In this document: in pieces, positions 3,284 through 29,765 of the stretch
Layout: every line of letters starts with the position of its first letter
Position numbering within the stretch: the stretch's first letter is position 1
Assembly (NCBI GenBank): GCA_028714055.1
Contig: JAQTNB010000001.1
Coordinates: forward strand, 1-30,798
From: Candidatus Omnitrophota bacterium
GTDB lineage: Bacteria; Omnitrophota; Gorgyraeia; Gygaellales; Profunditerraquicolaceae
DNA length: 30,798 bases
Reading direction: 5' to 3'
Made by a program: the position numbers and the translations under genes
The notes under the pieces: generated by a model
Told to the model about the DNA's origin: nothing
Seen by the model: only the letters and a program-made list of their open reading frames with translations
Databases searched by the model: none

Positions 3284-4492
3284 ATGTATGTAGGCCTGGG
3301 GGTAAGCACAGAAAAGGACCCCGTGCTGGCGGTCAAGGAAGCCGCAAAAATCGCGGCGATCAACATGCACGGCGCAAAGGTCGACCTTGCCATCACCTTC
3401 ACCTCTTTTGATCATGCATACCCGATACTGCTTAAAACCCTCAATATCCTCTTAAACCGCATCCCGATCATCGGCTTGACGGGTGCTGCGATCATGTCCA
3501 ATGAAGGGGTTTTCAGCAGTGCCGTTGCGGTGATGCTGCTCGGTTTTCCCAAAGGCACGTATTTTAACGCTGCCTGCGTCAAGGATATCAAAGAAAAGGG
3601 GACCCTGGAAGCAGGCCGGGAACTCGGCGTGAAGCTGATGGCCGGGTTCCAAAACATGCACAGGGTTTTGAGCGTAACGTTCTGTGACGGCCTGATAGAA
3701 GAAGGCACCGGGATCATAAACGGCCTTCAGGAAAGGCTGGGCAGAAGCTTCCCGCTTATCGGCGCTTCGGCGTCGGACAACCTTCGTTTCCTGAAAACCT
3801 ACGTTTATTCCAACCAGGAAATGATAAATGACGCGATCGTGGGCATACTTTTTGCGGGTAAGATCAGCTTTGGCCTGGGCCTCAAACACGGCTGGAAGCC
3901 GCTCGGGAAACCCCGGACCGTCACCAGGGCAGAAGGCAATGTCGTATACGAAATAAACAACCAGCCCGCGATCAAGATGTACCAGGAATACCTGGGCCGC
4001 GGCTTTGCCGAACTACAGAGGGAAATAAAGCGTATTTCGGTACTTTATCCGCTCGGGATGTTCCTCCCGGGAGAACAGGAATACCTGCTGCGTAATGCCC
4101 GCCTGGTCGGCGACGACGGGTCGCTGCACATGCAGGGTAATGTTGAAGAAGGCAGCACCGTACGGCTGATGATCGGCACGAAAGAATCGTGCCTGGCCGC
4201 TACCCACCAGGCGCTGGAAGAAGCAAAACAGAACCTCGTTTCCCAGCGCAGGGAGCTGTTAAAAGACCCGGACATCAACTTTCTTCTTGTATTCGATTCC
4301 GTTTCGCGGTATATGTTGTTAAAAAGGGACGCGGATAAGGAACTGGAGATCATAAAAAGCGGGATCCGGAAGGATACGCCCATACTGGGCATTTATACGT
4401 ATGGGGAGCAGGCGCCGCTTTTATCGATCGATTACCAGGGACAAACGCACCTGCATAACCAAACCATCACCATGCTTGCAGTCAGCAATTAA
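3284..4492 (+). CDS. Stand-alone FIST-domain signal transduction protein (FIST_N + FIST_C)
   Basis: Motifs LIGASASD, HGWKPLG, YPLG, RLMIG, GIYTYGEQAP and C-terminal HNQT. Confidence 0.9.
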   Translation: MYVGLGVSTEKDPVLAVKEAAKIAAINMHGAKVDLAITFTSFDHAYPILLKTLNILLNRIPIIGLTGAAIMSNEGVFSSAVAVMLLGFPKGTYFNAACVKDIKEKGTLEAGRELGVKLMAGFQNMHRVLSVTFCDGLIEEGTGIINGLQERLGRSFPLIGASASDNLRFLKTYVYSNQEMINDAIVGILFAGKISFGLGLKHGWKPLGKPRTVTRAEGNVVYEINNQPAIKMYQEYLGRGFAELQREIKRISVLYPLGMFLPGEQEYLLRNARLVGDDGSLHMQGNVEEGSTVRLMIGTKESCLAATHQALEEAKQNLVSQRRELLKDPDINFLLVFDSVSRYMLLKRDADKELEIIKSGIRKDTPILGIYTYGEQAPLLSIDYQGQTHLHNQTITMLAVSN

Positions 4493-4493
4493 A

Positions 4494-6008
4494 ATGCCAA
4501 ACGCCCCGGACCCTTCACTCTCTATGCTTTCCGTCATGCTCAAGCTCATCTATATCCTGATCCTTGCGGGCCTGGCGATCGCCCTCTTCCTGAAAGCGGA
4601 GAAACAGAAACGGCTTCAGCGTGAAACCGACAAATTGAGGAAATCGGTCGATGAGATGGATGAACAGGCAAAGCTCATCATGCGCACCGATATGGCCCTG
4701 AACAAGACACAGGAAGAACTCGATAAAAAAATAACCGGCCTCTACGCGCTCCAGAAGCTGTCCCGCTCGATCAGTACGACCCTGGAAGAACGCCAGATCC
4801 TCAAAAGGGTGCGGGGAGATTTCCTGCAGGAGCTCGGGTTTGAAAAAGCCTGCGCGCTTGTCTGGAACCAGCGGGAGGCGAAATTCAGCATAAACTTAAG
4901 CATCGGGTACCTGGAAGACGAGGCATACAAGATAAAGGCCGCCGTAGACGCGGAGAAAGAAAAATACCTCGACCTTATCTTCAAGGAAAAGACGGTTTCC
5001 TCGATCTCACTGTCGCAGGATACGGGGCTCAACGAAGAGAGGATAAGTACTGTTTTTAAGGTTACGGCCTTCGTTATCTCCCCCATTACCCCAAAAGAAG
5101 GGAACAAAGGTTTTTTCTTCCTCGGCACCGAAGACCCGGATGTGGCGATCACCGCGGGCGACGAAGAGTTGATCACCATCCTGACCAATCAAATAGGGCA
5201 GGCGATCGAAAACGCCCGCCTGTTTGAAAAGACCTGGATGGCGCAGCAGGAGCTCGAAAACAAGGTCGACGAACGCACCCGCGAGCTGACAGCGGTCTTA
5301 AACGAAGTGAAGCTGATAAACAAAAGGAAAACAGACTTCATCTCCAGCGTTTCCCATGAACTGCGTACCCCTTTGACCTCGATCAAGGGGTATGCCGCCA
5401 TCCTCCTTGCGGAAAAACTGGGGGCGCTCCCGCAGCCGGTCAAGGAACGCCTGGAAAAGATAAATTCGCACAGCGACGAACTCGTGCACATGGTCAACGG
5501 CCTGCTTGACATCGCGCGCATCGAATCGGGCAAAGCCGTCATGAAGATCGAGGAGCACGACCTCAAGGCCATTATCGCCAATGTCATGGACCTTATTTTT
5601 ATCCAGTGTAAAAATAAAAATATCGATCTGACGGCCCAGGTAAGCAAAGAGATGCCGTCGATCATGGTCGATAAGAGCCAGATCGAGCGCGTCTTTATCA
5701 ACCTGCTCGCCAATGCCGTTAAATTTACTCCCCAGGATGGCAAGATCACCATCCGGGCAGAGGTAAAAAAAGACAGGACCGTCCAGGTCGATATCACCGA
5801 TACCGGCATCGGCATCCCTCCCGACGGCCTCGAGAAGCTATTCGGTGAATTCTACCGCGTTGATAACGAGATCAACCAACAGGTAAAAGGCACGGGGCTC
5901 GGACTTTCGTTGGTCAAACACATCGTAGAAGCCCATAAGGGAAAGATCTGGGTGCAAAGCGCTCCCGGCAAAGGAAGCACGTTCAGTTTTACGTTGCCCA
6001 TACGATAG
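4494..6008 (+). CDS. Membrane-anchored GAF sensor histidine kinase
   Basis: Start re-called at ATG 4494, 1 nt after the FIST stop. N-terminal TM, GAF (LTNQIGQAIENARLF), H-box HELRTPLTS, N/G boxes (NLLANAVKF, DTGIGI, GTGLGL). Confidence 0.93.
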   Translation: MPNAPDPSLSMLSVMLKLIYILILAGLAIALFLKAEKQKRLQRETDKLRKSVDEMDEQAKLIMRTDMALNKTQEELDKKITGLYALQKLSRSISTTLEERQILKRVRGDFLQELGFEKACALVWNQREAKFSINLSIGYLEDEAYKIKAAVDAEKEKYLDLIFKEKTVSSISLSQDTGLNEERISTVFKVTAFVISPITPKEGNKGFFFLGTEDPDVAITAGDEELITILTNQIGQAIENARLFEKTWMAQQELENKVDERTRELTAVLNEVKLINKRKTDFISSVSHELRTPLTSIKGYAAILLAEKLGALPQPVKERLEKINSHSDELVHMVNGLLDIARIESGKAVMKIEEHDLKAIIANVMDLIFIQCKNKNIDLTAQVSKEMPSIMVDKSQIERVFINLLANAVKFTPQDGKITIRAEVKKDRTVQVDITDTGIGIPPDGLEKLFGEFYRVDNEINQQVKGTGLGLSLVKHIVEAHKGKIWVQSAPGKGSTFSFTLPIR

Positions 6009-6027
6009 ACAGAAGGAGATCGCAGCC

Positions 6028-6993
6028 GTGATAAAACCCCGCGTATTGCTCGTCGATGACGATCCCGACATTCTTGATGTCCTGGAGATAACGCTCTCCG
6101 AGGAAAACTTCGAAATCTCCAAGGCGCATGACGGCGAAGAAGCAATGCGCATCATAAAATCGAAACCCCTGGACCTGGTGCTCCTGGACTACAACATGCC
6201 GAGAATGAACGGCCGGGAGGTCTGCATGCAGGTCAAGAAAGACATCCTGCTCAGGCACCTGCCGATCATTATGGTCACCGGGCGAGGCGAGGTCGAAGAT
6301 AAAGTAGGCGGCATTGACGCCGGAGCTGACGACTACATGGTTAAGCCTTTCGAACCGAAAGAGCTGCTGGCGCATATACGCATGATATTGAGGCGCACGG
6401 AAATCGACCTTGAGGCTAATCCCCTGACGCGGCTTCCGGGGAACGTTTCGATCATGAACGAACTCTCCCGCCGCATTGAAAAGAAAACGCTCTTTGCGGT
6501 ATGTTATATCGACCTGGATAAATTCAAGTCTTACAACGACAAATACGGCTTTGAACACGGGGATGAGGTCATACGGGAAACCGCGCGTATCCTCATACAG
6601 GTCGCCCAGCAGGTCGGCAATCCCGATGATTTCGTCGGGCATATCGGCGGGGACGATTTCGTCATCGTAACCATCCCCGCGACAGTCGACTCTCTCTGCA
6701 AAGCGATCATCGATGAATTCGGGGATAAGACTCCTTCATTCTACAATGAAACAGACAGGACCAACGGCTATATCGTCGCTTTCGACCGCCAGGGAAAGGA
6801 ACAACGCATCCCCCTTCTTTCGGTATCCATCGGCGTAGTCACCAATGAATTCAGGAAGATAGAACACGTAGCTCAGGTGGGAGAGATCGGCGCGGAATTG
6901 AAATCATACGCCAAGAAACTGCAGGGAAGTAATTACGTCAAAGACCAGCGCCGGGACGAAACCAGGACCCCCGCTCCTCCGCCAGGCGGCTAA
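6028..6993 (+). CDS. Response regulator with REC + GGDEF domain
   Basis: REC motifs (LVDDD, DYNMP, KPF); NPLTRLPGN, DLDKFKSYNDKYG and HIGGDDF (GGDDF variant). Confidence 0.92.
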   Translation: MIKPRVLLVDDDPDILDVLEITLSEENFEISKAHDGEEAMRIIKSKPLDLVLLDYNMPRMNGREVCMQVKKDILLRHLPIIMVTGRGEVEDKVGGIDAGADDYMVKPFEPKELLAHIRMILRRTEIDLEANPLTRLPGNVSIMNELSRRIEKKTLFAVCYIDLDKFKSYNDKYGFEHGDEVIRETARILIQVAQQVGNPDDFVGHIGGDDFVIVTIPATVDSLCKAIIDEFGDKTPSFYNETDRTNGYIVAFDRQGKEQRIPLLSVSIGVVTNEFRKIEHVAQVGEIGAELKSYAKKLQGSNYVKDQRRDETRTPAPPPGG

Positions 6994-7021
6994 CCGTAAC
7001 GACCGGATTCTCTCGGCTAAC

Positions 7022-7052
7022 AAAAAAACCGGCATTATTATGCCGGTTTTTT
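7022..7052. terminator. Bidirectional intrinsic terminator between the GGDEF gene and tRNA-Leu
   Basis: AAAAAAACCGGCA-TTATTA-TGCCGGTTTTTT, with T-tracts on both strands between convergent genes. Confidence 0.88.
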
Positions 7053-7075
7053 ACTGTTGCCTTTTCTCGGATTTA

Positions 7076-7158
7076 TGCGAGGAGAGGGAGTTGAACCCTC
7101 ACACCCTTGCGGGCAACAGCCCCTCAAACTGTCGCGTCTGCCATTCCGCCATCCTCGC
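7076..7158 (-). tRNA. tRNA-Leu (anticodon GAG); CCA not encoded
   Basis: Reverse complement GCGAGGATGGCGGAATGGCAGACGCGACAGTTTGAGGGGCTGTTGCCCGCAAGGGTGTGAGGGTTCAACTCCCTCTCCTCGCA; long variable arm, anticodon loop TTGAGGG. Confidence 0.96.
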
Positions 7159-7188
7159 AGGAACTTATCAAACAAAAGGAGTATGCTT

Positions 7189-7233: not shown

Positions 7234-7581
7234 TTATACGACCGGCGTGACAAGATACAGGTATCGAAGGGTGCCTTTCCCGGCATTCTGCACATCGTGT
7301 CTCGTCTCCGGGGGGATGTACACCAGCTCTGGGGCCTGAGCGCGGAGATCCTTAAACCCCGCGCACGATACCCGGGCCCTTCCTTCAAGTATGATGAGGA
7401 CTTCTTCTTTCCGGTCGGTCACATGCTCTCCGACAGAACAGCGGGGCTTCAGGGCCACCAGGCCCCCGCGGAAACGGCGCGTTTGGCAAGAATCGTCAAG
7501 CAGCCGCAAAAACCTTTTTTTGCTCTTCAGGGGCATAACCAGGGGTTTGCCGCGGCCGGATCTATCGTCTGTTTTTTTCAC
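7234..7581 (-). CDS. Cupin-domain protein
   Basis: GTG start with AAGGA RBS; cupin motif 1 GEHVTDRKEEVLIILEG and motif 2 YIPPETRHDVQN. Confidence 0.85.
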   Translation of the reverse strand: MKKTDDRSGRGKPLVMPLKSKKRFLRLLDDSCQTRRFRGGLVALKPRCSVGEHVTDRKEEVLIILEGRARVSCAGFKDLRAQAPELVYIPPETRHDVQNAGKGTLRYLYLVTPVV

Positions 7582-7596
7582 GCGGTGTCCTTTGTT

Positions 7597-8148
7597 TTAA
7601 CGGTCCGGAGCCGGGCGGGGTGAGCGTTTCTTCCGGGCCTTCCTGATCTTTTCTTCGATATACCAGGAGAAATAACCTTTATATTTCCTCTGTAACGCGG
7701 GGTTTTTCCAGTCCTTCGTCGTGATCCGCTTACGGCAATCCTTTGCTCCGCAGCTGCATTGAAACGAATAATCGAAGTCGGCATCGGTCATGGCATAATC
7801 ATAGGTGATCTCTTCACCCGGCTTGATATCCTTCATGGCAACCATCAGGATATTGCCTTTGATGCCCGCATTAGGATGGCAGCTATGGTTAAAAAAATCG
7901 TCGTCTTCTAACCCGCCCTTTTTACAGGAAACCAGGAAAAATCCTTCGGCAATCTTGGTCGCATAATCATCGATGTTCCTGAATTTCCCGCGCGAAAGAG
8001 AATTGAATTCTTTTTGCGTAATGATAAAACCTCCCCATACGGCGATTATCTCGTCTTTGCGGATCGGCTTGACGGCAAAGATCCCCCGTCGATGAATCCC
8101 CGAAGAACACACGCCAACCTTGTCCGTTAAATAGGAATGTTTGATCAT
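7597..8148 (-). CDS. SET-domain methyltransferase with post-SET Zn motif
   Basis: GIHRRGIFA, NHSCHPN, GEEITYDY and post-SET CSCGAKDCR. The start overlaps the upstream stop (ATGA). Confidence 0.93.
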   Translation of the reverse strand: MIKHSYLTDKVGVCSSGIHRRGIFAVKPIRKDEIIAVWGGFIITQKEFNSLSRGKFRNIDDYATKIAEGFFLVSCKKGGLEDDDFFNHSCHPNAGIKGNILMVAMKDIKPGEEITYDYAMTDADFDYSFQCSCGAKDCRKRITTKDWKNPALQRKYKGYFSWYIEEKIRKARKKRSPRPAPDR

Positions 8149-9149
8149 GTTATATGCCGGCGATTACAAACAATACCCTGCGCCTTAAGGCCGGCCAACA
8201 GGCCATTGACCAGCCCCGGATCCCTTCCCAGTTCGTGCATAAAGAGCAATCCCCGCTGCCGCAGCGCTCCTTCGGCGATCAACCGTGCCATTACCACGGG
8301 CACGGAGGCCGTGATCTTCTGCATGGAATTACGCTCTTCTCCTTTTCGGGAAAAGGCCCTTAAGTTCCATAAGGTTTCCCCCCGCTTCCTCTCTACCGCG
8401 ATCTCGGCCAGCGTGATGTTATCCGGGATTGATGATTCAAGCGTTTTTTTCGTAAACTGCACCGCCGATTTTTTCAGAAAACCGTGGCTTTTCAAAAACT
8501 GGAAGAAATCCATGAACCCCTTTGGCCTCACCACTCTGCAGGTAAAATCGCGGATACCGGCTTCCTGCATGACATTCTCAAAACCGCTTGCGCAGAAATA
8601 GCTTTCTGCCGCTATGCCGGCAAAGCGCTCCGGGGCGTAAGCCGCGAAGGGAGGGAATTTTACCTTCTTGCCGGAACACACCTGCCAGGAAGGGATACTG
8701 TGCTCAAGCACCAGGTCCTCAAAACACCAAAGAAAAGGGAAAAAAAACTTTTTTATGCATAATGAACCTGCCTTGACTTCGATTTTTTTGATGGAGGTGG
8801 CGTCTTGGAGTTCGTGCCCGAGGATAAAATTAACCGCTCCCGGAGAGAAGCCGCAGCCGGGGATGACTGTAATCCCCTGCTTTGCGATCTCGGCCTTCTT
8901 CGCCAAATAAAACGGAGGGTCTATATCGGAGATATCCAGCAGGTTCTTACGGTATTTCAAAGCGAGCGCCAGGCCCTTTCCTCCGAGCTCCCCCGGCAAG
9001 GCGCCGATCAAAAGGTCGCAGGTTGCCGCATCGCGGTCCCTGCGGGCAAAATCCGCCCCGGCTACCCAGGGACTGAGCCTAAAAAAATGCCGGAGAGCAC
9101 AGCCTATCCGGCCATCACCTAAAATCAATATCTTCGATTTTTTGTTCAT
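8145..9149 (-). CDS. Saccharopine dehydrogenase / lysine 6-dehydrogenase-like NAD(P)-binding oxidoreductase (divergent)
   Basis: Rossmann ILGDGRIG; LDIS and IPGCGFSPG motifs; C-terminal SMQKITASVPVVMARLI helix typical of the family. Confidence 0.8.
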   Translation of the reverse strand: MNKKSKILILGDGRIGCALRHFFRLSPWVAGADFARRDRDAATCDLLIGALPGELGGKGLALALKYRKNLLDISDIDPPFYLAKKAEIAKQGITVIPGCGFSPGAVNFILGHELQDATSIKKIEVKAGSLCIKKFFFPFLWCFEDLVLEHSIPSWQVCSGKKVKFPPFAAYAPERFAGIAAESYFCASGFENVMQEAGIRDFTCRVVRPKGFMDFFQFLKSHGFLKKSAVQFTKKTLESSIPDNITLAEIAVERKRGETLWNLRAFSRKGEERNSMQKITASVPVVMARLIAEGALRQRGLLFMHELGRDPGLVNGLLAGLKAQGIVCNRRHIT

Positions 9150-9152
9150 CCC

Positions 9153-10040
9153 TTATAACTGCCACATCCTGGGCATAACCATGCTGGCAAGATGCATGGG
9201 AGGGGTGTAATATTTCAAGGAAGAAGCCTTTGTCCCAAGCCGCTCTTTAAGGCGCTTGGCGATGACGGAAGGGGGGATCGAGGCGGGGTCTATTTTCTTG
9301 GAGGCGATCATAAAACAGTACTCGCAGCCGCAGCTGTAGGAAGGCATGGGGAGCCGTACCGGATGGACATAACGGCAATAGGGCGTTAGCTTACGCGCGG
9401 TAGGTTTCACGATCAGGTCGAAATCAAGGAAAGGCCCTAACTGGAATATCGCGATCCCGTCGGAGGTAAGCGCTTCAAAGACCGTCTTATAGAAATCCCC
9501 CTGGAAAAGGACCTTCCCGGGGCCTACGGGGTCCGTGGAATCGACCACGATCACGTCAAAAAAGTCCTTATACCTCTTGATGAACTTCCTGCCATCCTCA
9601 AAGGAGATCGAGAACCTCTTGTCCGAAAACGCTCCCCGGGACACAAACGGCAGGTGTTTTTTCGCCAGGGCGACCACTTTCCGGTCGATCTCAACCTGAT
9701 AAAGCTCTGCTAAAGGGTGTTTGACCGCCTCCCGCAATACCCCTCCATCGCCGCCCCCGACTACCAATAATCGTTTTGGCGAAGGATGCGAAAGCAGCGG
9801 CACGTGCGCGATAGTCTCATGATAGATAAATTCGTCGCTCTGGGAAAATTGGATAATGCCGTCGAGTACCAGTATCCTGCCAAAACCGGGGCTCTCAAAA
9901 ATGTAGATATCCTGGAAATCGCTCTTGCCCTTGAATATTTCCTTGCCGATAAGAAAGGCGTCTTTCTTGCAGCGCCTTACTCCGGGAAAAGACGTTTCGA
10001 TGAACCAGGGGCGATTATGGTACGGCGGGATCGACTTCAC
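9153..10040 (-). CDS. speE: Polyamine aminopropyltransferase (spermidine synthase family)
   Basis: LVLDG..Q...DEFIYHE, VVGGGDGG, VEID, EDG and DSTDP motifs. Confidence 0.95.
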   Translation of the reverse strand: MKSIPPYHNRPWFIETSFPGVRRCKKDAFLIGKEIFKGKSDFQDIYIFESPGFGRILVLDGIIQFSQSDEFIYHETIAHVPLLSHPSPKRLLVVGGGDGGVLREAVKHPLAELYQVEIDRKVVALAKKHLPFVSRGAFSDKRFSISFEDGRKFIKRYKDFFDVIVVDSTDPVGPGKVLFQGDFYKTVFEALTSDGIAIFQLGPFLDFDLIVKPTARKLTPYCRYVHPVRLPMPSYSCGCEYCFMIASKKIDPASIPPSVIAKRLKERLGTKASSLKYYTPPMHLASMVMPRMWQL

Positions 10041-10447
10041 GCGTTGCCTCTTTTGATCTCTCGGACTTTCACTTCGCGGGGGGCAAACTTTTCTTTCAGG
10101 TACTCCAGGGCGTTGTGAGGTTTTGTTTTTTTGCCGCAGGTGAAGATATCGATGGAGATATAATCGTGCTCCGGCCAGGTGTGGATGGAGATATGCGATT
10201 CGGCGAGCAATATAACGCCGGTAACGCCCTGCACCGGAAATTTATAGATAGCGGTCTTAAGCGGAGTATTATGGGCAGCCTTGGCTGCCTCAAAAAGGAC
10301 CTTTTCGATCTCGTCGGGATCTTCGATAAAATTACGGGGCGCGACGAAATCAACGATCAAGTGGACCGCCGAAACGGCTTCGTCCTCTTTGAACGGCATT
10401 TCTTTAAGCTCGACGGTCTCCAGGCGCTCTTTCAATACGTTCCTCAT
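10037..10447 (-). CDS. speD: Pyruvoyl-dependent S-adenosylmethionine decarboxylase proenzyme
   Basis: Self-cleavage motif AESHISIHTWPE and DIFTCG. The stop overlaps the speE start. An alternative TTG start 4 codons in has a GAGG RBS. Confidence 0.93.
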   Translation of the reverse strand: MRNVLKERLETVELKEMPFKEDEAVSAVHLIVDFVAPRNFIEDPDEIEKVLFEAAKAAHNTPLKTAIYKFPVQGVTGVILLAESHISIHTWPEHDYISIDIFTCGKKTKPHNALEYLKEKFAPREVKVREIKRGNA

Positions 10448-10456
10448 AATACTCTT

Positions 10457-10484
10457 ATTCTAATTACAATTTGTAAAAAAGCAA
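10457..10484 (-). promoter_or_regulatory. Putative promoter of the speD operon
   Basis: TTGCTT-N16-TAGAAT with an A-rich upstream tract; the -10 is only 9 nt from the first ATG. Confidence 0.6.
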
Positions 10485-10512
10485 ATTTTTTTTGAATTTT
10501 TTTGTATTTTCA

Positions 10513-10610
10513 GTGAAGCTCCCCGGACTTAAGTCCGGGGCTTCCTCCTGAGCAGAAAATGCATAATTCCATTCATTCCTCGGGCTAAAGCTCGGGGATT
10601 TCTGCGAAGG
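10513..10610 (-). mobile_element. 98-bp non-autonomous IS200/IS605-family derivative (PATE-like)
   Basis: Minus strand reads TTGAT target | left-end imperfect hairpin TCCCCGAGC-TTTA-GCCCGAGGA ... GAAG + perfect 20-bp palindrome CCCCGGACTTAAGTCCGGGG + AGCTTCAC end. No target-site duplication and no ORF. Confidence 0.78.
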
Positions 10611-10611
10611 A

Positions 10612-24055: not shown

Positions 24056-24418
24056 TTACCTGGAGGCTTTGATTTTCCGAAGGAGGAATTCCATATCAAA
24101 AGGCTTTTTGACGGTATAGGAGACAAGGTCTGCAACGCCTTCATCTTTGAGTAATTTTTCCACAAAAGGCCTGCCGCTTGCCACGAAAATTTTTGACTTT
24201 ATCCGCTTTTCTCTTACCAGCTTCAAAAAATCGACCCCGGTCAATCCGGACATCTTGTAATCAAGGATGATAATATCGTAGTCGGTATCCTGCGCCCGCT
24301 GTATCCCCTGAGCGACGTCACAGGCCGTTTCTACAAGGTAGCCTTCGTCCTTGAGGATCTCGGATATCTCTTCGCAAAGCTCTACGTCGTCGTCAACTAC
24401 GAGTATGTTTTTTTTCAT
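24056..24418 (-). CDS. Single-domain response regulator (REC)
   Basis: VVDDD, DYKM, ASG and KKPF. The start overlaps the kinase 3' end by 26 nt. Confidence 0.92.
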   Translation of the reverse strand: MKKNILVVDDDVELCEEISEILKDEGYLVETACDVAQGIQRAQDTDYDIIILDYKMSGLTGVDFLKLVREKRIKSKIFVASGRPFVEKLLKDEGVADLVSYTVKKPFDMEFLLRKIKASR

Positions 24419-27400
24419 TGCCTGCTTTCTTCAGGGGCAGATTCACCGTGACGGTCGTCCCCTTGCCCTTTTCGCTTTCAATGCCCAGCGTGCCGCCGTG
24501 AAGATTGAGTATTTGCTTGCATACCGTAAGGCCAAGCCCTGTCCCCTTGGCCTTGGTGGTAAAGAAGGGGTCGAATATCCTTTCCAGGTGCTCTTTGTCT
24601 ATCCCCATGCCGTTGTCCTGGACGCGCACGCTGATGGAGTGCTTATCGCGCACAGCATGTATCTCTATCCTTCCCGATTCCGCAGGGATTGCCTCATAAG
24701 CATTGTTCAAAATATTGGAAAAGACCTCCTTAAGCTGCAACGGGTCACCTTCAAGAACGACCTGTTTAAGCGCGCCCAGCCTTCTTGACAAGGTTATTTT
24801 TCTTTCCGGGTGCCGCCCTTCTACAAGGCCCGTACACTCATCGATGATCTCGCTGATCCTGGTCTTCTCAAGACGGGGGGCCTTGATCCGCGAATAAAAG
24901 AGGAGGTTGCTGATGATCTGCTCGCTTTCGTTTATCTTCTTTTCGATGGTATGCAGGTGTTTCTCGAACATCGGGTCCTGCGCCTTCCGCTTAATATTAT
25001 AGGCGGCCATATGTATCGCGGCCAGCGGATTACGCAGTTCATGCGCTACGGTAGCGGCCAGGGTCCCGATATCCGAGAGCCGCTTTGACTCTATCAATTG
25101 CGCCTGGGTCCTTAAGAGCTCTTCTTCCGCTGCTTTTCGCCTGGTTACGTCGACAAGAAGCAGGATGATGCCGCTCACGTTACCGTCGGAATCCTTGACC
25201 GGCTGCAGGCTCCAATCCCAGTAGGTGGCCTTGTGTCCTGCATCGTGCTTGTACCCAAGGGGCCTGGCAAACGCTACGTAAGGTTCGCCGCTCCTGATAA
25301 CTTCCGTAAAGATCGCTTGATTTTCTTCGTCGGGATAAAGAGAGAAGAGGTTCCTCCCCACAAAGAAATCCGGGGCCTTTCCGTCGAGCGCAGCATACTC
25401 CTGGTTCACGCGGATAAAATTAAACCCTGAATCCAGATACGCGATCAAAAGATTGGTGCTTGAGAAGACCCGTTCCAGCAATTCGGCGTTCTTCCGGGCG
25501 GCATCGGAAAGATTAAACCGGTAAATCCCTTCTCCCACCAGGGGCGCCAGCGATTCAAGCGACGTGATAAGTTTCAGGCTCACTTTCCCTTCCCGCTCAT
25601 CGGCCAGGTGTATCGCCCCGATGGTCTCGTCCATGTAGCGGACCGGTATGATCGCCACGGATTTAAATCCTTCTTTGATGCAGCGTCCCCGGAATTTAGG
25701 CTTGTCTTCCTCCGGAAAACTTACGGCAAAATCCAAGGTATTCTCGCTACGGAAAGACCCAAACGCGGTCAAGGCCTGGCTTTCCACGGGAAGGAATCTT
25801 CCCTGAAAAGCCCTGATACAGATGCACTGATCTTTTTCGAGCGAAAGCGGGCTCTCAGACTCCCAAAACTCGCGAGAGAAACCCCTGAAAGCCTCGTAGG
25901 GTATCCTCCCCTCGCTGTTTTTCAGGCGGATCCCCACGCAGCGGCATCCGCTCCATCCGCTGATAAGTTTTACTACGGATTCCAAGTATCCCGCCCTCGA
26001 AGCGGTTTTGTTCAAAAGCTTCAACAGGACGTTCCTGGCATAAATATGGTGCTCGACCTCTTTTCGCTCGATGATCTCCTGGTTCAATTGTTCATTCAAG
26101 TTGCGGAGCTCTCCGGTGCGCAAGGCGACCCTCTCCTCAAGTTCCGCATGCGCTCTCCTGAGCGCTTCTTCCGAGCTCTTGCGCTCGGAGATATCCCGCA
26201 CAAAGGCGCAATTGTATTCCCGTTCCCCCATCTTTAAATAATTGACCGTTACCTCGACGGGAAAAGTCGTTCCGTCTTTTGCGCGGTGGACGCTCTCCAG
26301 GGTGAAAGACCCGTATTTTTTAACCTCTTCCCAGTGTTTTTGCCAGGCTTCCCTGGAAAAATTCTGGTCGATGTCAAGCACGGTCATATTCAATAACTCC
26401 TGCCTGCTGTATCCCAACGCCCTGCTCGCCTGATCATTGACATAATATACCCCGGCGTCGGGCTTGATCCAGAATATCGCCTCGGCTGCCCGGTCAACGG
26501 AAAACTGCGTAAAACGCAGTTCCTGCTCTATAAGCTTGCGTTCGGTGATGTCCTGCCCTTGCGCGATCGTCGCCACGAGGGTCTTGCCGTCTTCTGCGTA
26601 AATATTCGCCGAATTCCAGAGGGCGATCCGCACCCGGCCGTCCTTTCTCAGGATCGGTATCTCGACGGTCTGCCAGTATTCGCCGCTTAAGGTCTTTTCG
26701 ATCCTGGCCAGTGATTCGTCCCTGGTGTCGCGAGGAAAAAGTATGCTCAGATGTTTACCGAGCACCTCATCTGCCTTGAAACCCGATAAATGTTCAAAGG
26801 CGTGGTTAAAGCGGGTGATCCTAAATTCGGTATCCCAACAGATGATAGGGGCGTTTGCGTAATTAAAAATTTTCTCCAGGTAATCTTTGGTCTGCCTGAG
26901 GGTTTCCTCCGTGCTCTTGATCTGGGTGATATCCTGGGCTGTCCCGAAACCACTCAACAAGCTGCCCTTATCGTCGAATTCCAACTCCGCCTTTTCGCGC
27001 ACCCACTTGACCATGCCATCCGCGATGATCCTGTGCTCGATATCATACTTGCCGCCGGCAAAGGCTTCTTTCCACTTCTTGTCAACATGTTCCCGGTCTT
27101 CCGGGAAAACTGCTTCCAGAAACCTCTCGTAGGTAAGGGGTGTCCCCGGAGCGATGCCGAATATCCGATAGGTCTCCCGAGACCAGAGCAATTCGTTTTT
27201 GTGCACATCCAGCCGCCAGCTTCCGGTAAGGGCGACGGCCTGGGCACGGGTAAGGTCTTCTTCGCTCTCCCTCAATGCTTTGGTCCGCTCTTGTACTCTG
27301 AGCTCAAGCAATTCGTAGGACTTTTTGAGCGCCTCTTCAGCCTTTTTGCGCTCGCTGATATCTATACCCATCTCCAGGATGAGCATAGAGCCGTCCGTAT

Positions 27401-28928
27401 CCGTGAAGGGATAATCGAAGATATCGTAATTGCGGCCATCGGGCCCGAGCCACTCCCAATGGTGAGGCGCGTTTGTTTTCATTGCCTTATAACTCTCGCA
27501 GTTCTCGCACGCGCCGCTGCGATTAAACAGATATTCGTAACAACGCCTTCCGTGCGACTCGCCGAAGCGCTCGCGGAAGAACCGGTTGGCAAAAGGCATG
27601 CGGTAATCCTTATCCAGCAAAACCACATACACCGGCAGCGCCTCCAGGACGCTGAAAAACCGCTGGCGTTCGGTTGCAAGTTCTGCGGTACGCGCCCTGA
27701 CCCGCCCCTCCAATGCGGCCTGCGATTCCTTCAGGCCCTCTTCAAGGCGCTTACGTGCTCCGATTTCTCTGTCCAGCTCATCGCGAGATGCGGTGATCGC
27801 CTTCAAATCGCTGGTCATTTTATCAAACGCCCTTGAAAGCTGGCCGATCTCATCGTCGAGGTCAAGCGCGACTTTATAGTCTAAATTTCCGCTCCCTACT
27901 ATCTCTGCGCCCCTGGCGAGTTTTTTGACGGGTCCGGAAATCGAGCGGGCAATGTAAAACGCCATGATGCCGGACAAAACAGAACCGATGACCAGGATGA
28001 ACATGGCGAGTAGCTTTAAATTTTCAACATCCGCTAAGGCCTCTCTGCTGTCTATCTTGGCCACTACTCCCCAGTCCAGGGAAGGCAAGTGCTTCCAGGC
28101 TGCCACAACCCTCCTGCCGCGGTAATCAACCATCTCTCCGGCGCCTGTCAAACCTTGCACGGCTTTTTGTATAGGCCCGCCGAATTCTTGCTCCAGGAAA
28201 ACTTTTCTCTTAAGCGCGGCATCAGGGTCGTGCCTGAGCGGATTCAAAAATACCGCCTCATTACCTATCCGTTTTCCCAGGAGCGTCTCTCCGGTCTCTC
28301 CCATGCCGGCTGTATCCCGGATAAGCTTGTAGACAGGCTCCAAATCCACTTTGAGCACGATGAGCCCGATAAAGGTGCCGTCAAAATCAAAAACCGGGGC
28401 AGCCACCAGCATCCCCGGCCTATTGCCTTCTGTTTTGTTCAAAAAGATATCCGATATATAGACCTTGTCTTTCCCCTCTTCGAAAGCCCTTTGGCCGGCA
28501 TCGGGGAGAGACTGTAAAAAGTCTGCCGGGTAATGCCCGGGGTTGCTTGAGTATATCGTCTTTCCCCGGGGGTTTACCACCATCACATCGAGCAAAGCAA
28601 ATGCCGCCTGCATCTGCTGCGCCGGCCCATCGACCATAGCTTTAGCTTCAAGGAAAGCGGCGCTATCCGGCTCTGAAGAAAAACGGTCAAGCGCGGGCAG
28701 GTTCTTCTTGATCACGTATAGACTCCGGGCGAGCTCTATCGCCGAACGCAACCCCGCAAAATAAGTTTCGATCTTGTCCGCCTTAAATGCGACGATCTTC
28801 TGTAACTCCGACAGGTGCGCCGCTTCAAGGGAATTCCGGTAATTATGAAAGGTGATGGCCCCTATAAAGAAAGACGGGATGACCGCCACAACGATGAATA
28901 AAATGGTGAGCTTCAGCCTCAGAGACAT
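24393..28928 (-). CDS. Multi-sensor histidine kinase (TM-Cache-TM-HAMP-4 PAS-GAF-PAS-HisKA-HATPase), 1511 aa
   Basis: Two TM helices around a Cache-like domain; HAMP (DEIGQLSRAFDKM); repeated PAS/PAC units ending DI(S/T)xxK/DVTRRK; HELRNP, NILNNA, DNGMG, FFTTK and GTGLGL. Confidence 0.93.
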   Translation of the reverse strand: MSLRLKLTILFIVVAVIPSFFIGAITFHNYRNSLEAAHLSELQKIVAFKADKIETYFAGLRSAIELARSLYVIKKNLPALDRFSSEPDSAAFLEAKAMVDGPAQQMQAAFALLDVMVVNPRGKTIYSSNPGHYPADFLQSLPDAGQRAFEEGKDKVYISDIFLNKTEGNRPGMLVAAPVFDFDGTFIGLIVLKVDLEPVYKLIRDTAGMGETGETLLGKRIGNEAVFLNPLRHDPDAALKRKVFLEQEFGGPIQKAVQGLTGAGEMVDYRGRRVVAAWKHLPSLDWGVVAKIDSREALADVENLKLLAMFILVIGSVLSGIMAFYIARSISGPVKKLARGAEIVGSGNLDYKVALDLDDEIGQLSRAFDKMTSDLKAITASRDELDREIGARKRLEEGLKESQAALEGRVRARTAELATERQRFFSVLEALPVYVVLLDKDYRMPFANRFFRERFGESHGRRCYEYLFNRSGACENCESYKAMKTNAPHHWEWLGPDGRNYDIFDYPFTDTDGSMLILEMGIDISERKKAEEALKKSYELLELRVQERTKALRESEEDLTRAQAVALTGSWRLDVHKNELLWSRETYRIFGIAPGTPLTYERFLEAVFPEDREHVDKKWKEAFAGGKYDIEHRIIADGMVKWVREKAELEFDDKGSLLSGFGTAQDITQIKSTEETLRQTKDYLEKIFNYANAPIICWDTEFRITRFNHAFEHLSGFKADEVLGKHLSILFPRDTRDESLARIEKTLSGEYWQTVEIPILRKDGRVRIALWNSANIYAEDGKTLVATIAQGQDITERKLIEQELRFTQFSVDRAAEAIFWIKPDAGVYYVNDQASRALGYSRQELLNMTVLDIDQNFSREAWQKHWEEVKKYGSFTLESVHRAKDGTTFPVEVTVNYLKMGEREYNCAFVRDISERKSSEEALRRAHAELEERVALRTGELRNLNEQLNQEIIERKEVEHHIYARNVLLKLLNKTASRAGYLESVVKLISGWSGCRCVGIRLKNSEGRIPYEAFRGFSREFWESESPLSLEKDQCICIRAFQGRFLPVESQALTAFGSFRSENTLDFAVSFPEEDKPKFRGRCIKEGFKSVAIIPVRYMDETIGAIHLADEREGKVSLKLITSLESLAPLVGEGIYRFNLSDAARKNAELLERVFSSTNLLIAYLDSGFNFIRVNQEYAALDGKAPDFFVGRNLFSLYPDEENQAIFTEVIRSGEPYVAFARPLGYKHDAGHKATYWDWSLQPVKDSDGNVSGIILLLVDVTRRKAAEEELLRTQAQLIESKRLSDIGTLAATVAHELRNPLAAIHMAAYNIKRKAQDPMFEKHLHTIEKKINESEQIISNLLFYSRIKAPRLEKTRISEIIDECTGLVEGRHPERKITLSRRLGALKQVVLEGDPLQLKEVFSNILNNAYEAIPAESGRIEIHAVRDKHSISVRVQDNGMGIDKEHLERIFDPFFTTKAKGTGLGLTVCKQILNLHGGTLGIESEKGKGTTVTVNLPLKKAGNEKKHTRS

Positions 28929-29012: not shown

Positions 29013-29765
29013 TCATTTTTTCCGGAGTCTTTTTGAGAAACGCTTTTTTTTCGTTTCTTTCGCTTTGTTGCGGTAGGAGGTAGGCGTACGGCCGCAGAGT
29101 TTCTTGAACTGTCGTATGAACGATTCGGCATTCTCATACCCTAATTTATCGGAGATCTGGTTTATGTTGTAGCCGCTCTTCTCCAGCAGCTCTTTGGCCT
29201 TACCTATCTTAAACGCCAGTTTGTAATCGTTAAACCCGGTCCTCAGGCACTCTTTAAACACCCTGCTCAGGTACTTGGGGCTCAGGCACACGGCATCCGC
29301 CGCTTCTTTGAGGGTTATCTTCTTGTAACAGTTCCTCTCGATAAAGCGCTTAACCATCTCCATCTTGCCCTTTAAATCGAGGCTTGCCATATCCCCTTCG
29401 CCTCGCCGCGCGCCCAGGAGCCTTTCGACGGCATCTTTGATTCTTTTGATATCTATCGGTTTTTCTATGTAATCGTCGGCGCGGCCTTTCAGCGCTTCTA
29501 TCGCGACGTCTTTAGAGCTGTGCCCGGTGAGGATGATGATGCCGAGCCCCGGGTCGGTCTTCTTGATTTCCGCCAAAACGTCAAGCCCGCTTATCCCCGG
29601 CATCATCACGTCCAGGATCATCAGGCCTATCTCATGCGCCCTTTTCAAAAGCTTAAGGGCCTCTTCGCCGCTTGATGCCTCGCATACCTCATACCCTTCA
29701 AGGAAATCCTTGAGCTCGCTGCGAAGATCTTCGTCATCATCCACGATCAATATCTTATCCGCCAT
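29013..29765 (-). CDS. Response regulator with REC + AraC-type HTH
   Basis: IVDDD, DVMMP, LTGH and EKP; AraC motifs LSPKYLSRVFK, AKELL and ISDKLGYENAESFIRQFKKLCGRTPTSYR. Confidence 0.93.
   Translation of the reverse strand: MADKILIVDDDEDLRSELKDFLEGYEVCEASSGEEALKLLKRAHEIGLMILDVMMPGISGLDVLAEIKKTDPGLGIIILTGHSSKDVAIEALKGRADDYIEKPIDIKRIKDAVERLLGARRGEGDMASLDLKGKMEMVKRFIERNCYKKITLKEAADAVCLSPKYLSRVFKECLRTGFNDYKLAFKIGKAKELLEKSGYNINQISDKLGYENAESFIRQFKKLCGRTPTSYRNKAKETKKKRFSKRLRKK

Follow-up and report, generated by a model that had tools for sequence, protein, structure and literature searches.

What do an oxidoreductase of the saccharopine-dehydrogenase fold and a SET-domain methyltransferase do directly behind the polyamine genes speD and speE? 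The question is raised by a run of minus-strand genes in a 30,798-nt stretch of contig JAQTNB010000001.1 (assembly GCA_028714055.1, here G000; 1.37 Mb in 233 contigs, 85% complete) from a Candidatus Omnitrophota bacterium; this whole stretch is referred to below as the window. A first-pass annotation of the window had described five coupled genes, speD, speE, a saccharopine-dehydrogenase-like (SDH-like) gene, a SET gene and a cupin gene, as a candidate pathway for N-methylated or otherwise modified polyamines. We found that the conserved unit consists of four genes, speD, speE, SDH-like and SET, referred to here as the cassette. At about even confidence, we read it as a modified-polyamine pathway rather than one for plain spermidine, in which the SET protein would N-methylate a polyamine.

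Conservation and linkage of the cassette

The five minus-strand genes and their junctions were confirmed from the open reading frames. Along the transcript, speD and speE overlap by 4 nt, speE and SDH-like lie 3 nt apart, SDH-like and SET overlap by 4 nt, and SET and the cupin gene lie 15 nt apart; the GTG start of speE shares 4 nt with the speD stop, and the start of the SET gene overlaps the stop of the SDH-like gene as ATGA. The same speD-speE-SDH-SET order, with similar spacing, was found in six of 40 sampled relatives belonging to other genera and to one other family, a recurrence that speaks against a chance arrangement, and nearly all named homologues come from Candidatus Omnitrophota metagenome-assembled genomes (MAGs).

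A profile of the SDH-like protein, run against a set with a single genome for each prokaryotic species, yielded 47 loci. The SDH-like gene lies directly downstream of speE in every one of them, across several phyla, and is followed immediately by the SET gene in 38, all from Omnitrophota. SET is clearly absent from eight loci, and the remaining one (L034) stops inside the SDH-like gene, where the presence of SET is not readable. We also counted the genes across 401 evenly sampled Omnitrophota genomes, taking as SET orthologues those with E≤1e-55 and at least 51% identity; other SET paralogues in this sample have E≥1e-20. The SET orthologue and the SDH-like gene were found in the same 13 genomes, adjacent in all 13, and neither occurs alone. 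The cassette SpeE forms a separate clade that is confined to these 13 genomes and is 37–44% identical to the canonical SpeE of the phylum. Conservation of the SET gene beside speD and speE, on which the first-pass annotation had staked its proposal, is thus observed in 13 of 13 genomes in this sample and in 38 loci overall.

Pairwise distances of SpeE, the SDH-like protein and SET correlate over 37 loci (r 0.72–0.81, Mantel p≤0.001), and the mean distance of SET over these loci (0.38) is close to that of SpeE (0.39), indicating that the two are alike in constraint. The genes that flank the cassette differ between loci. The loci include kin and are not independent, and the counts are to be read as stable co-inheritance and not as a formal statistic. 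This co-inheritance, combined with a gene fusion described below and the spread across phyla, makes a functional link among the cassette genes very likely.

The eight loci without SET indicate the company that the SDH-like gene keeps elsewhere. In five MAGs of the Candidate Phyla Radiation (CPR) type, SET is missing and the SDH-like gene is accompanied by speD, by speE and by one or two genes for BpsA_C-like branched-polyamine synthases; L034 begins alike, in the order speD-BpsA_C-like-speE-SDH. The CPR-type genomes with the SDH-like cluster contain a single AdoMet_dc homologue in four of five cases and a PF02784 decarboxylase in none of the five. In a Nannocystaceae MAG the SDH-like domain is fused to an aminopropyltransferase in a protein of 655 aa, and the same locus (L058:1737-12080) also holds speE, a third aminopropyltransferase, two JmjC/cupin_8 proteins, a flavin monooxygenase and an AMP-binding enzyme; this gene content suggests a cluster whose product is an elaborate polyamine, perhaps a long-chain or hydroxylated one. 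The remaining two SET-less loci belong to a Spirochaetales MAG and a Saprospiraceae MAG. BpsA (PF01861) provides a parallel to the cassette as an N-alkylating accessory enzyme whose gene clusters with those for SpeD and SpeE, and BpsA-like genes accompany the SDH-like gene in CPR-type genomes. However, BpsA transfers an aminopropyl group from decarboxylated S-adenosylmethionine (dcSAM), whereas SET would transfer a methyl group from S-adenosylmethionine (SAM), and the two folds are unrelated.

The coupled operon of the first-pass annotation therefore stands for its first four genes, while the cupin does not form a conserved part of it. The cupin (PF07883 Cupin_2, 9e-10) was absent by tblastn from six of six relatives and from 47 of 47 loci, and was seen only in a 96%-identical relative. 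There it was called as a protein of 74 aa, the gene caller placing its start 41 codons later and 139 nt after SET, and between the two genomes the N-terminal extension changes faster than the cupin core. Because only this closest relative has the gene, with a later start and a fast-changing extension, the cupin is, on sequence comparison, a lineage-specific and recent passenger outside the conserved module, and the 15-nt coupling to SET, which depends on a GTG start, is uncertain. We rejected the cupin as a pathway member on the same grounds of restricted occurrence and ambiguous start.

Enzyme families of the cassette products

The speD product is a class 1b pyruvoyl SAM decarboxylase (AdoMetDC) proenzyme (TIGR03330, 129 bits against a cut-off of 75.65; PF02675 AdoMet_dc, 127 bits, 3.7e-37). 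Its closest PDB matches are 2iii and 1tlu, and it carries the predicted self-processing motif AESHIS, with AESHISIHTWPE aligning to the processing region of both structures. It is the sole AdoMet_dc homologue in G000. SpeE is a polyamine aminopropyltransferase (PF01564, 2.6e-48; NF002010, 271.3 bits against a cut-off of 260; TIGR00417, 245.3, slightly below the cut-off of 249.55) whose translation, aligned to 1uir, carries the dcSAM-binding motifs GGGDGG and DSTDP. The top PDB match is 1uir itself, the broad-specificity aminopropyltransferase of Thermus thermophilus (2.4e-54), marginally ahead of ordinary spermidine synthases. Independently of the cassette, proteins of ~750–800 aa with a weak spermidine-synthase-like domain are common in the phylum (G000:C10:6291-6779 and ~130 Omnitrophota genomes) and are probably of the fused type that joins a major facilitator superfamily transporter to a spermidine synthase.

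The SDH-like protein scored 28 bits on the Pfam model Sacchrp_dh_C, under the 31-bit cut-off, and matched no NCBIfam model. An AlphaFold2 model (pLDDT 89.6) placed it by Foldseek closest to 3ABI, the L-lysine 6-dehydrogenase (LysDH) of Pyrococcus horikoshii (PH1688; TM 0.84, E 3e-27), followed by carboxyspermidine dehydrogenases (CASDH) and saccharopine reductases (E ~1e-18 to 1e-19, 13–15% identity). The family profile aligned to 3ABI over its full length (residues 4–329, E 2.8e-35) and to the CASDH 4INA with an E value of 0.25. On the basis of the model, the protein is assigned as an NAD(P)-type oxidoreductase of the saccharopine-reductase/LysDH/CASDH fold. The family keeps the GxGxx(G/A) loop, and its signature PFLWCFED aligns to KITWSPRD of LysDH. 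A candidate fusion of the SDH-like protein with SET (P0054, 541 aa) was discarded, its C-terminal part being other than a SET domain.

PH1688 is the best match in both sequence and structure, is of similar size and likewise has no large dimerisation insert, but identity is only ~21%, the PFLWCFED signature takes the place of KITWSPRD, and the gene context here is always speE. The conserved residues of the SDH-like family comprise 11 acidic, five basic and 14 aromatic positions in a protein that is basic as a whole (pI about 9.5), and the acidic and aromatic positions would fit a polycationic ligand such as a polyamine. The speE context and the acidic conserved residues together suggest a substrate other than L-lysine.

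The first-pass annotation had argued that this oxidoreductase is not simply part of the route through CASDH and carboxyspermidine decarboxylase (CASDC), and this was borne out. CASDH and the carboxynorspermidine dehydrogenases (8DEB, 8H4Z, 4INA) belong to the same fold family and serve polyamine synthesis by reductive coupling of an amine to an aldehyde. CASDH carries a His-Glu-Glu triad (His228-Glu229-Glu230 in BfCASDH), in contrast to LysDH and saccharopine reductase, which are without it (PMC10413350). An H[DE][DE] tripeptide was found in none of 20 members of the SDH-like family. The SDH-like protein of the cassette is also ~60 residues shorter than these enzymes and shares only 13–14% identity with them. 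The sole PF02784 gene of the 85%-complete assembly is lysA (TIGR01048, 404 bits; the nspC model gives 31 bits vs 409), leaving no carboxyspermidine decarboxylase partner, and the PF02784 genes of five relatives are likewise lysA only. The CASDH/CASDC route was rejected because the triad is absent, lysA is the only PF02784 gene and identity to CASDH is this low. Homospermidine synthase, which is placed in the same superfamily as CASDH-type enzymes (PMC10413350), had no entry among the best 50 Foldseek matches or the profile matches of the SDH-like protein.

The SET domain is clear (PF00856, 2.1e-15, 57.5 bits), and the AlphaFold2 model of the protein has a pLDDT of 88.3. Its NHSCxPN, GEEITYDY and post-SET cysteine motifs, which the first-pass annotation had picked out, proved invariant in an alignment of 30 orthologues: FFNHSCHPN (N87, H88, C90, P92 and N93), GEEITYDY (E113, T115, Y116, D117 and Y118) and Cys131, Cys133 and Cys138. 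Also invariant in the 30 orthologues are an acidic run, LEDDD, just before NHSC, TDAD after YDY, and a C-terminal extension, DW..LQ.KY.GYFSW. The protein is basic as a whole (pI about 9.5), whereas its conserved residues are predominantly acidic or aromatic, with ten acidic against five basic positions; this bias, which includes the invariant EDDD before NHSC, fits a polycationic ligand. Among 1.8 billion representative proteins, a profile of SET recovered a large bacterial family, with 380 representatives at E≤1e-30, many of which are tandem SETs.

Two systems bear on whether a SET-type enzyme may act on a small molecule. Diatom proteins that fuse AdoMetDC, aminopropyltransferase and histone N-methyltransferase domains, to which the first-pass annotation had pointed, are cited in the literature (PMC6356823, PMC12029483) as proposed to methylate long-chain polyamines (Michael 2011, FEBS Lett 585:2627). 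They resemble the cassette in physically linking dcSAM supply, aminopropyl transfer and a SET-type methyltransferase, with polyamine N-methylation as the proposed role; here, in contrast, the genes are separate and a LysDH-like enzyme is added, and the diatom function is itself only predicted. Similarity searches, in which the ten longest of the 150 best relatives of the cassette SET were scanned for polyamine domains, did not support a close link to these fusion proteins. The second system, which does provide a precedent, is BurB, a Burkholderia SET-domain methionine S-methyltransferase (PDB 9L4T; PMC12542666), which is likewise a bacterial SET enzyme with a small-molecule substrate inside a biosynthetic cluster but S-methylates an amino acid. 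Its similarity to the cassette SET is weak and partial, covering residues 86–144 only (E 1.1e-7, weaker than MLL/ASH1L), and it lies outside the top structural matches.

Comparison of the coordinates of SET and AdoMet_dc genes revealed a second SET subfamily of 145–175 aa, with the motifs LHSCDPN and TMDY and ~28% identity to the cassette SET. In five Omnitrophota genomes a divergent SpeD-like gene (TIGR03330, 30–47 bits, far under the cut-off) stands immediately upstream, and its end shares 4 nt with the SET gene. The same translationally coupled pair was found in a 5.2-Mb genome, on a contig from Spirochaetota and on one from Anaerolineae, where in the latter a gene for a GntF/NNMT-family N-methyltransferase stands ahead of the pair; in a 'Pseudomonadota' MAG the SET gene adjoins a pyridoxal-phosphate-dependent decarboxylase, not a SpeD-like gene. 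Altogether a decarboxylase adjoins the SET gene in nine of nine members examined, with two unrelated decarboxylase folds and at least four phyla represented, and we found no paper describing this decarboxylase-coupled subfamily. Metabolic pathways that act on an amino acid or an amine typically show such pairing, which favours small-molecule amine substrates. Together with BurB (PMC12542666), the subfamily indicates that SET enzymes have a place in bacterial amine metabolism beyond a single isolated case, and the view of the first-pass annotation that a SET enzyme could act on a small molecule is supported on both counts.

Candidate substrates and competing explanations

By homology, SpeD supplies dcSAM and SpeE transfers its aminopropyl group to an amine. 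If the cassette makes a modified polyamine, the SDH-like enzyme may then carry out NAD(P)-dependent oxidation, reductive amination or coupling on an amine or aldehyde at the end of the polyamine chain, by chemistry of the LysDH or homospermidine-synthase type, and SET would use SAM to N-methylate an amino group on that polyamine. The aminopropyl or aminobutyl end of a polyamine resembles a lysine side chain and could fit the lysine channel of SET. The cupin and the tRNA gene are neighbours outside this module.

Several observations weigh against a polyamine as the methyl acceptor. The closest sequences and structures to SET are histone lysine methyltransferases (ASH1L, MLL1-4, SETD2 and NSD; ASH1L and MLL1 at the top of the Foldseek matches), it retains every motif of the protein-lysine enzymes, including the catalytic Tyr, and its acidic patches would fit a Lys/Arg-rich protein equally well. 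Among the ten longest of its 150 best relatives, which are tandem SETs, combinations of SET with a class I methyltransferase and probable gene-call fusions, none contains an AdoMet_dc, Spermine_synth or Sacchrp_dh domain. The SDH-like gene occurs in other phyla without SET, which makes SET an accessory that may well act on something other than the SDH product, and gene linkage indicates a shared process, not a shared substrate.

These points lead to the explanation that survives best beside our own, namely that SET is an ordinary protein-lysine methyltransferase acting on a basic protein, for instance one of the nucleoid or the ribosome or an enzyme that the operon itself encodes; its co-regulation with polyamine synthesis would follow from an effect of both on nucleic-acid charge or translation. 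We regard this as possible, though we doubt it. Beyond the nearest sequences and folds, it can draw on the complete post-SET zinc site, on the conserved helical C-terminal extension and basic tail, which could dock on a macromolecule, and on the wider SET family, which lies mostly outside recognisable polyamine fusions. Against this, the SET orthologue group is never found apart from speE and the SDH-like gene and is joined to the latter by the ATGA overlap, and the patchy occurrence of the cassette (13 of 401 genomes) would be odd for an enzyme with a housekeeping protein target. The second SET subfamily also argues for small substrates, because it pairs with decarboxylases of two unrelated folds.

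A different explanation concerns the source of the amine that SpeE extends. The SDH-like enzyme might supply or regenerate this acceptor, by reductive amination of an aminoaldehyde in the manner of LysDH or by cleavage and transfer of the homospermidine-synthase type, so that the operon would be a self-contained polyamine route without amino-acid decarboxylases and SET would act later or elsewhere. This is rather unlikely in our estimation, though it is compatible with a modified-polyamine pathway. No arginase-fold, OKR_DC_1 or PvlArgDC gene was found in G000, whose only decarboxylase of the alanine-racemase fold is lysA, and the four genomes of the same family that carry the cassette and are at least 92% complete gave the same result, each with one AdoMet_dc homologue, PF02784 represented by lysA only, and no arginase-fold, OKR_DC_1 or PvlArgDC gene. 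Thus neither G000 nor these four genomes has a recognisable diamine-forming decarboxylase, and four of the five CPR-type genomes are alike in this.

The explanation also draws on the search for PotABCD uptake, in which the best PotA-like ATPase in G000 and these four genomes was a UgpC/MalK-type orphan beside accD and GGDEF genes, although other transporters remain possible. (In G000 the gene for this ABC ATPase, G000:C70:4011-4924, is broken by an in-frame TGA, which may reflect a fault in the assembly, a pseudogene or recoding.) Furthermore, the nearest solved relative of the SDH-like enzyme is an amine dehydrogenase, and the slot after speE is occupied elsewhere in the phylum by a decarboxylase. 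A speD-speE-speD2 cluster is present in at least 14 further Omnitrophota, whose speE is canonical (e.g. G248:C8:1361-2893, G229:C5:57499-59034 and G083:C4:12392-13933). The speD2 product scores only 65–72 bits on AdoMet_dc, in keeping with the SpeDC ornithine decarboxylases already published from this phylum, and this arrangement has been shown experimentally to give ornithine decarboxylase activity in Omnitrophota (Li et al. 2023, PMC10407285). One lineage thus has a second pyruvoyl decarboxylase in this slot, where another has the SDH-like and SET genes. The SpeD1::SpeDC-SpeE and speD-speE-speDC systems (PMC10407285) come from the same phylum and, like the cassette, place a class 1b AdoMetDC immediately ahead of an aminopropyltransferase; the cassette, in contrast, is without the second SpeD, an ornithine or arginine decarboxylase, and has SDH-like and SET after speE. 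Against acceptor supply by the SDH-like enzyme, six of the 13 cassette genomes possess extra AdoMet_dc homologues and the MAGs are incomplete; uptake through an unrecognised transporter would be simpler; and no source of an aminoaldehyde was identified, such a cycle being without precedent beyond the reversibility of homospermidine synthase.

It is very unlikely that aminopropylation, dehydrogenation and methylation all fall on the epsilon-amine of free or protein-bound lysine, in a hypusine- or silaffin-like modification. SpeE, LysDH-like and SET enzymes do all use a primary amine that ends a four-carbon chain, the nearest relative of the SDH-like enzyme acts on lysine, and these genomes make lysine (lysA) and have no recognisable diamine route. 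However, no target protein is conserved beside the cassette, whose flanks vary; the Arg in WSPRD of LysDH is Glu in WCFED, and the acidic conserved residues do not suggest a site for an amino-acid carboxylate; and the patchy distribution argues against an essential modification of the EF-P type.

That this is an ordinary spermidine operon in which SDH-like and SET are unrelated passengers is hardly credible, for although speD and speE suffice for spermidine synthesis and both accessory roles are predicted only, linkage in 47 of 47 loci and 13 of 13 genomes, occurrence in several phyla, gene fusion, translational coupling and correlated divergence all speak against it.

Genomic surroundings and implications

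The first-pass annotation had placed a single promoter-like element ahead of speD; a consensus scan upstream of the gene found no such site. The leader contains a hairpin with a fold z-score of -2.7 and gave no riboswitch and no Rfam match. The tRNA-Leu(GAG) gene that follows the cupin does have a promoter of its own, as had been claimed, in the form of a promoter-like site TTGACT-17-TAAAAT at 7217-7189 (10 of 12 consensus positions in the promoter scan), and a terminator-like hairpin with a T-run lies downstream of it at ~7020-7052. The remaining genes of the window encode efflux, ECF-transporter, era/truB and two-component functions, none of them polyamine-related.

Coordinates of the cassette and its neighbours in the window, and of related loci in other genomes
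Feature	Location	Strand	Description
speD	10037-10447	minus	AdoMet_dc (PF02675), 136 aa
speE	9153-10040	minus	Spermine_synth (PF01564), 295 aa, GTG start
SDH-like (saccharopine-dehydrogenase-fold) gene	8145-9149	minus	334 aa; fold from AlphaFold2 and Foldseek
SET methyltransferase gene	7597-8148	minus	SET (PF00856), 183 aa
Cupin gene	7234-7581	minus	Cupin_2 (PF07883), 115 aa if the GTG start is used
tRNA-Leu(GAG)	7075-7159	minus	ARAGORN; Rfam 50.8 bits
Intergenic leader, era to speD	10448-10611	minus	G+C-rich hairpin, then AT-rich stretch
CPR-type loci with SDH-like cluster	L034:2808-6060, L048:3601-6981, L050:613-5085, L053:3590-6975, L056:3546-6990		Genomes of 0.5-0.9 Mb
Second SET subfamily loci	L072:4906-5756, L073:5087-5910, L074:5071-5900, L075:5168-5991, L076:4947-5800, L080:3586-4495, L081:2512-4152, L082:3612-4453, L083:4001-5811

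Two signalling loci were noted in the window. A plus-strand operon encoding a FIST sensor, a histidine kinase and a receiver-GGDEF protein (3284-6993) converges on the cassette at the tRNA gene. In four other Omnitrophota loci (L015, L025, L055 and L057) the cassette has a FIST homologue no more than 5 kb away, and in the Saprospiraceae MAG (L060:2261-4400) a FIST gene and a kinase gene stand directly upstream on the same strand; this proximity could be shared synteny or a sensing link. Further along, a minus-strand gene at 24393-28928 encodes a sensor histidine kinase of 1511 aa with dCache, HAMP and at least five PAS domains, and adjoins the gene for an AraC-type response regulator (29013-29765).

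A full-text search of the literature on SET or saccharopine dehydrogenase with aminopropyltransferase gene clusters found no paper on the cassette, and a search on N-methylated polyamines in bacteria returned nothing relevant by title or abstract. Polyamine papers have invoked 'unknown dehydrogenase' steps in the formation of norspermidine (PMC11107197), for which the LysDH-like enzyme is a concrete candidate; it might also explain polyamines in reduced genomes that have no ornithine or arginine decarboxylase. At its most far-reaching, and we consider this improbable, the cassette would be a self-contained route to N-methylated polyamines that draws on SAM only. SpeD and SpeE would add the aminopropyl units, the LysDH-fold enzyme would produce or restore the diamine acceptor through NAD(P)-dependent amination or cleavage, in place of amino-acid decarboxylases, and SET would be the first bacterial polyamine N-methyltransferase; if that were true, the cassette and the SpeD-like/SET pairs of other phyla would together reveal SET enzymes that methylate small-molecule amines as an entire class.

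Although the biosynthesis of polyamines is regarded as mostly mapped, this module adds to the SpeD/SpeE pair two enzyme families without an assigned function, and there is a real chance that this type of polyamine biosynthetic operon holds new enzymology. All of the cassette proteins are small and soluble. If SET does methylate polyamines, a fold that is known nearly exclusively from the methylation of lysines in histones and other proteins would gain a new kind of substrate, and the cassette would provide a simple bacterial model for the unproven SET-dependent polyamine methylation of diatoms in silica formation.

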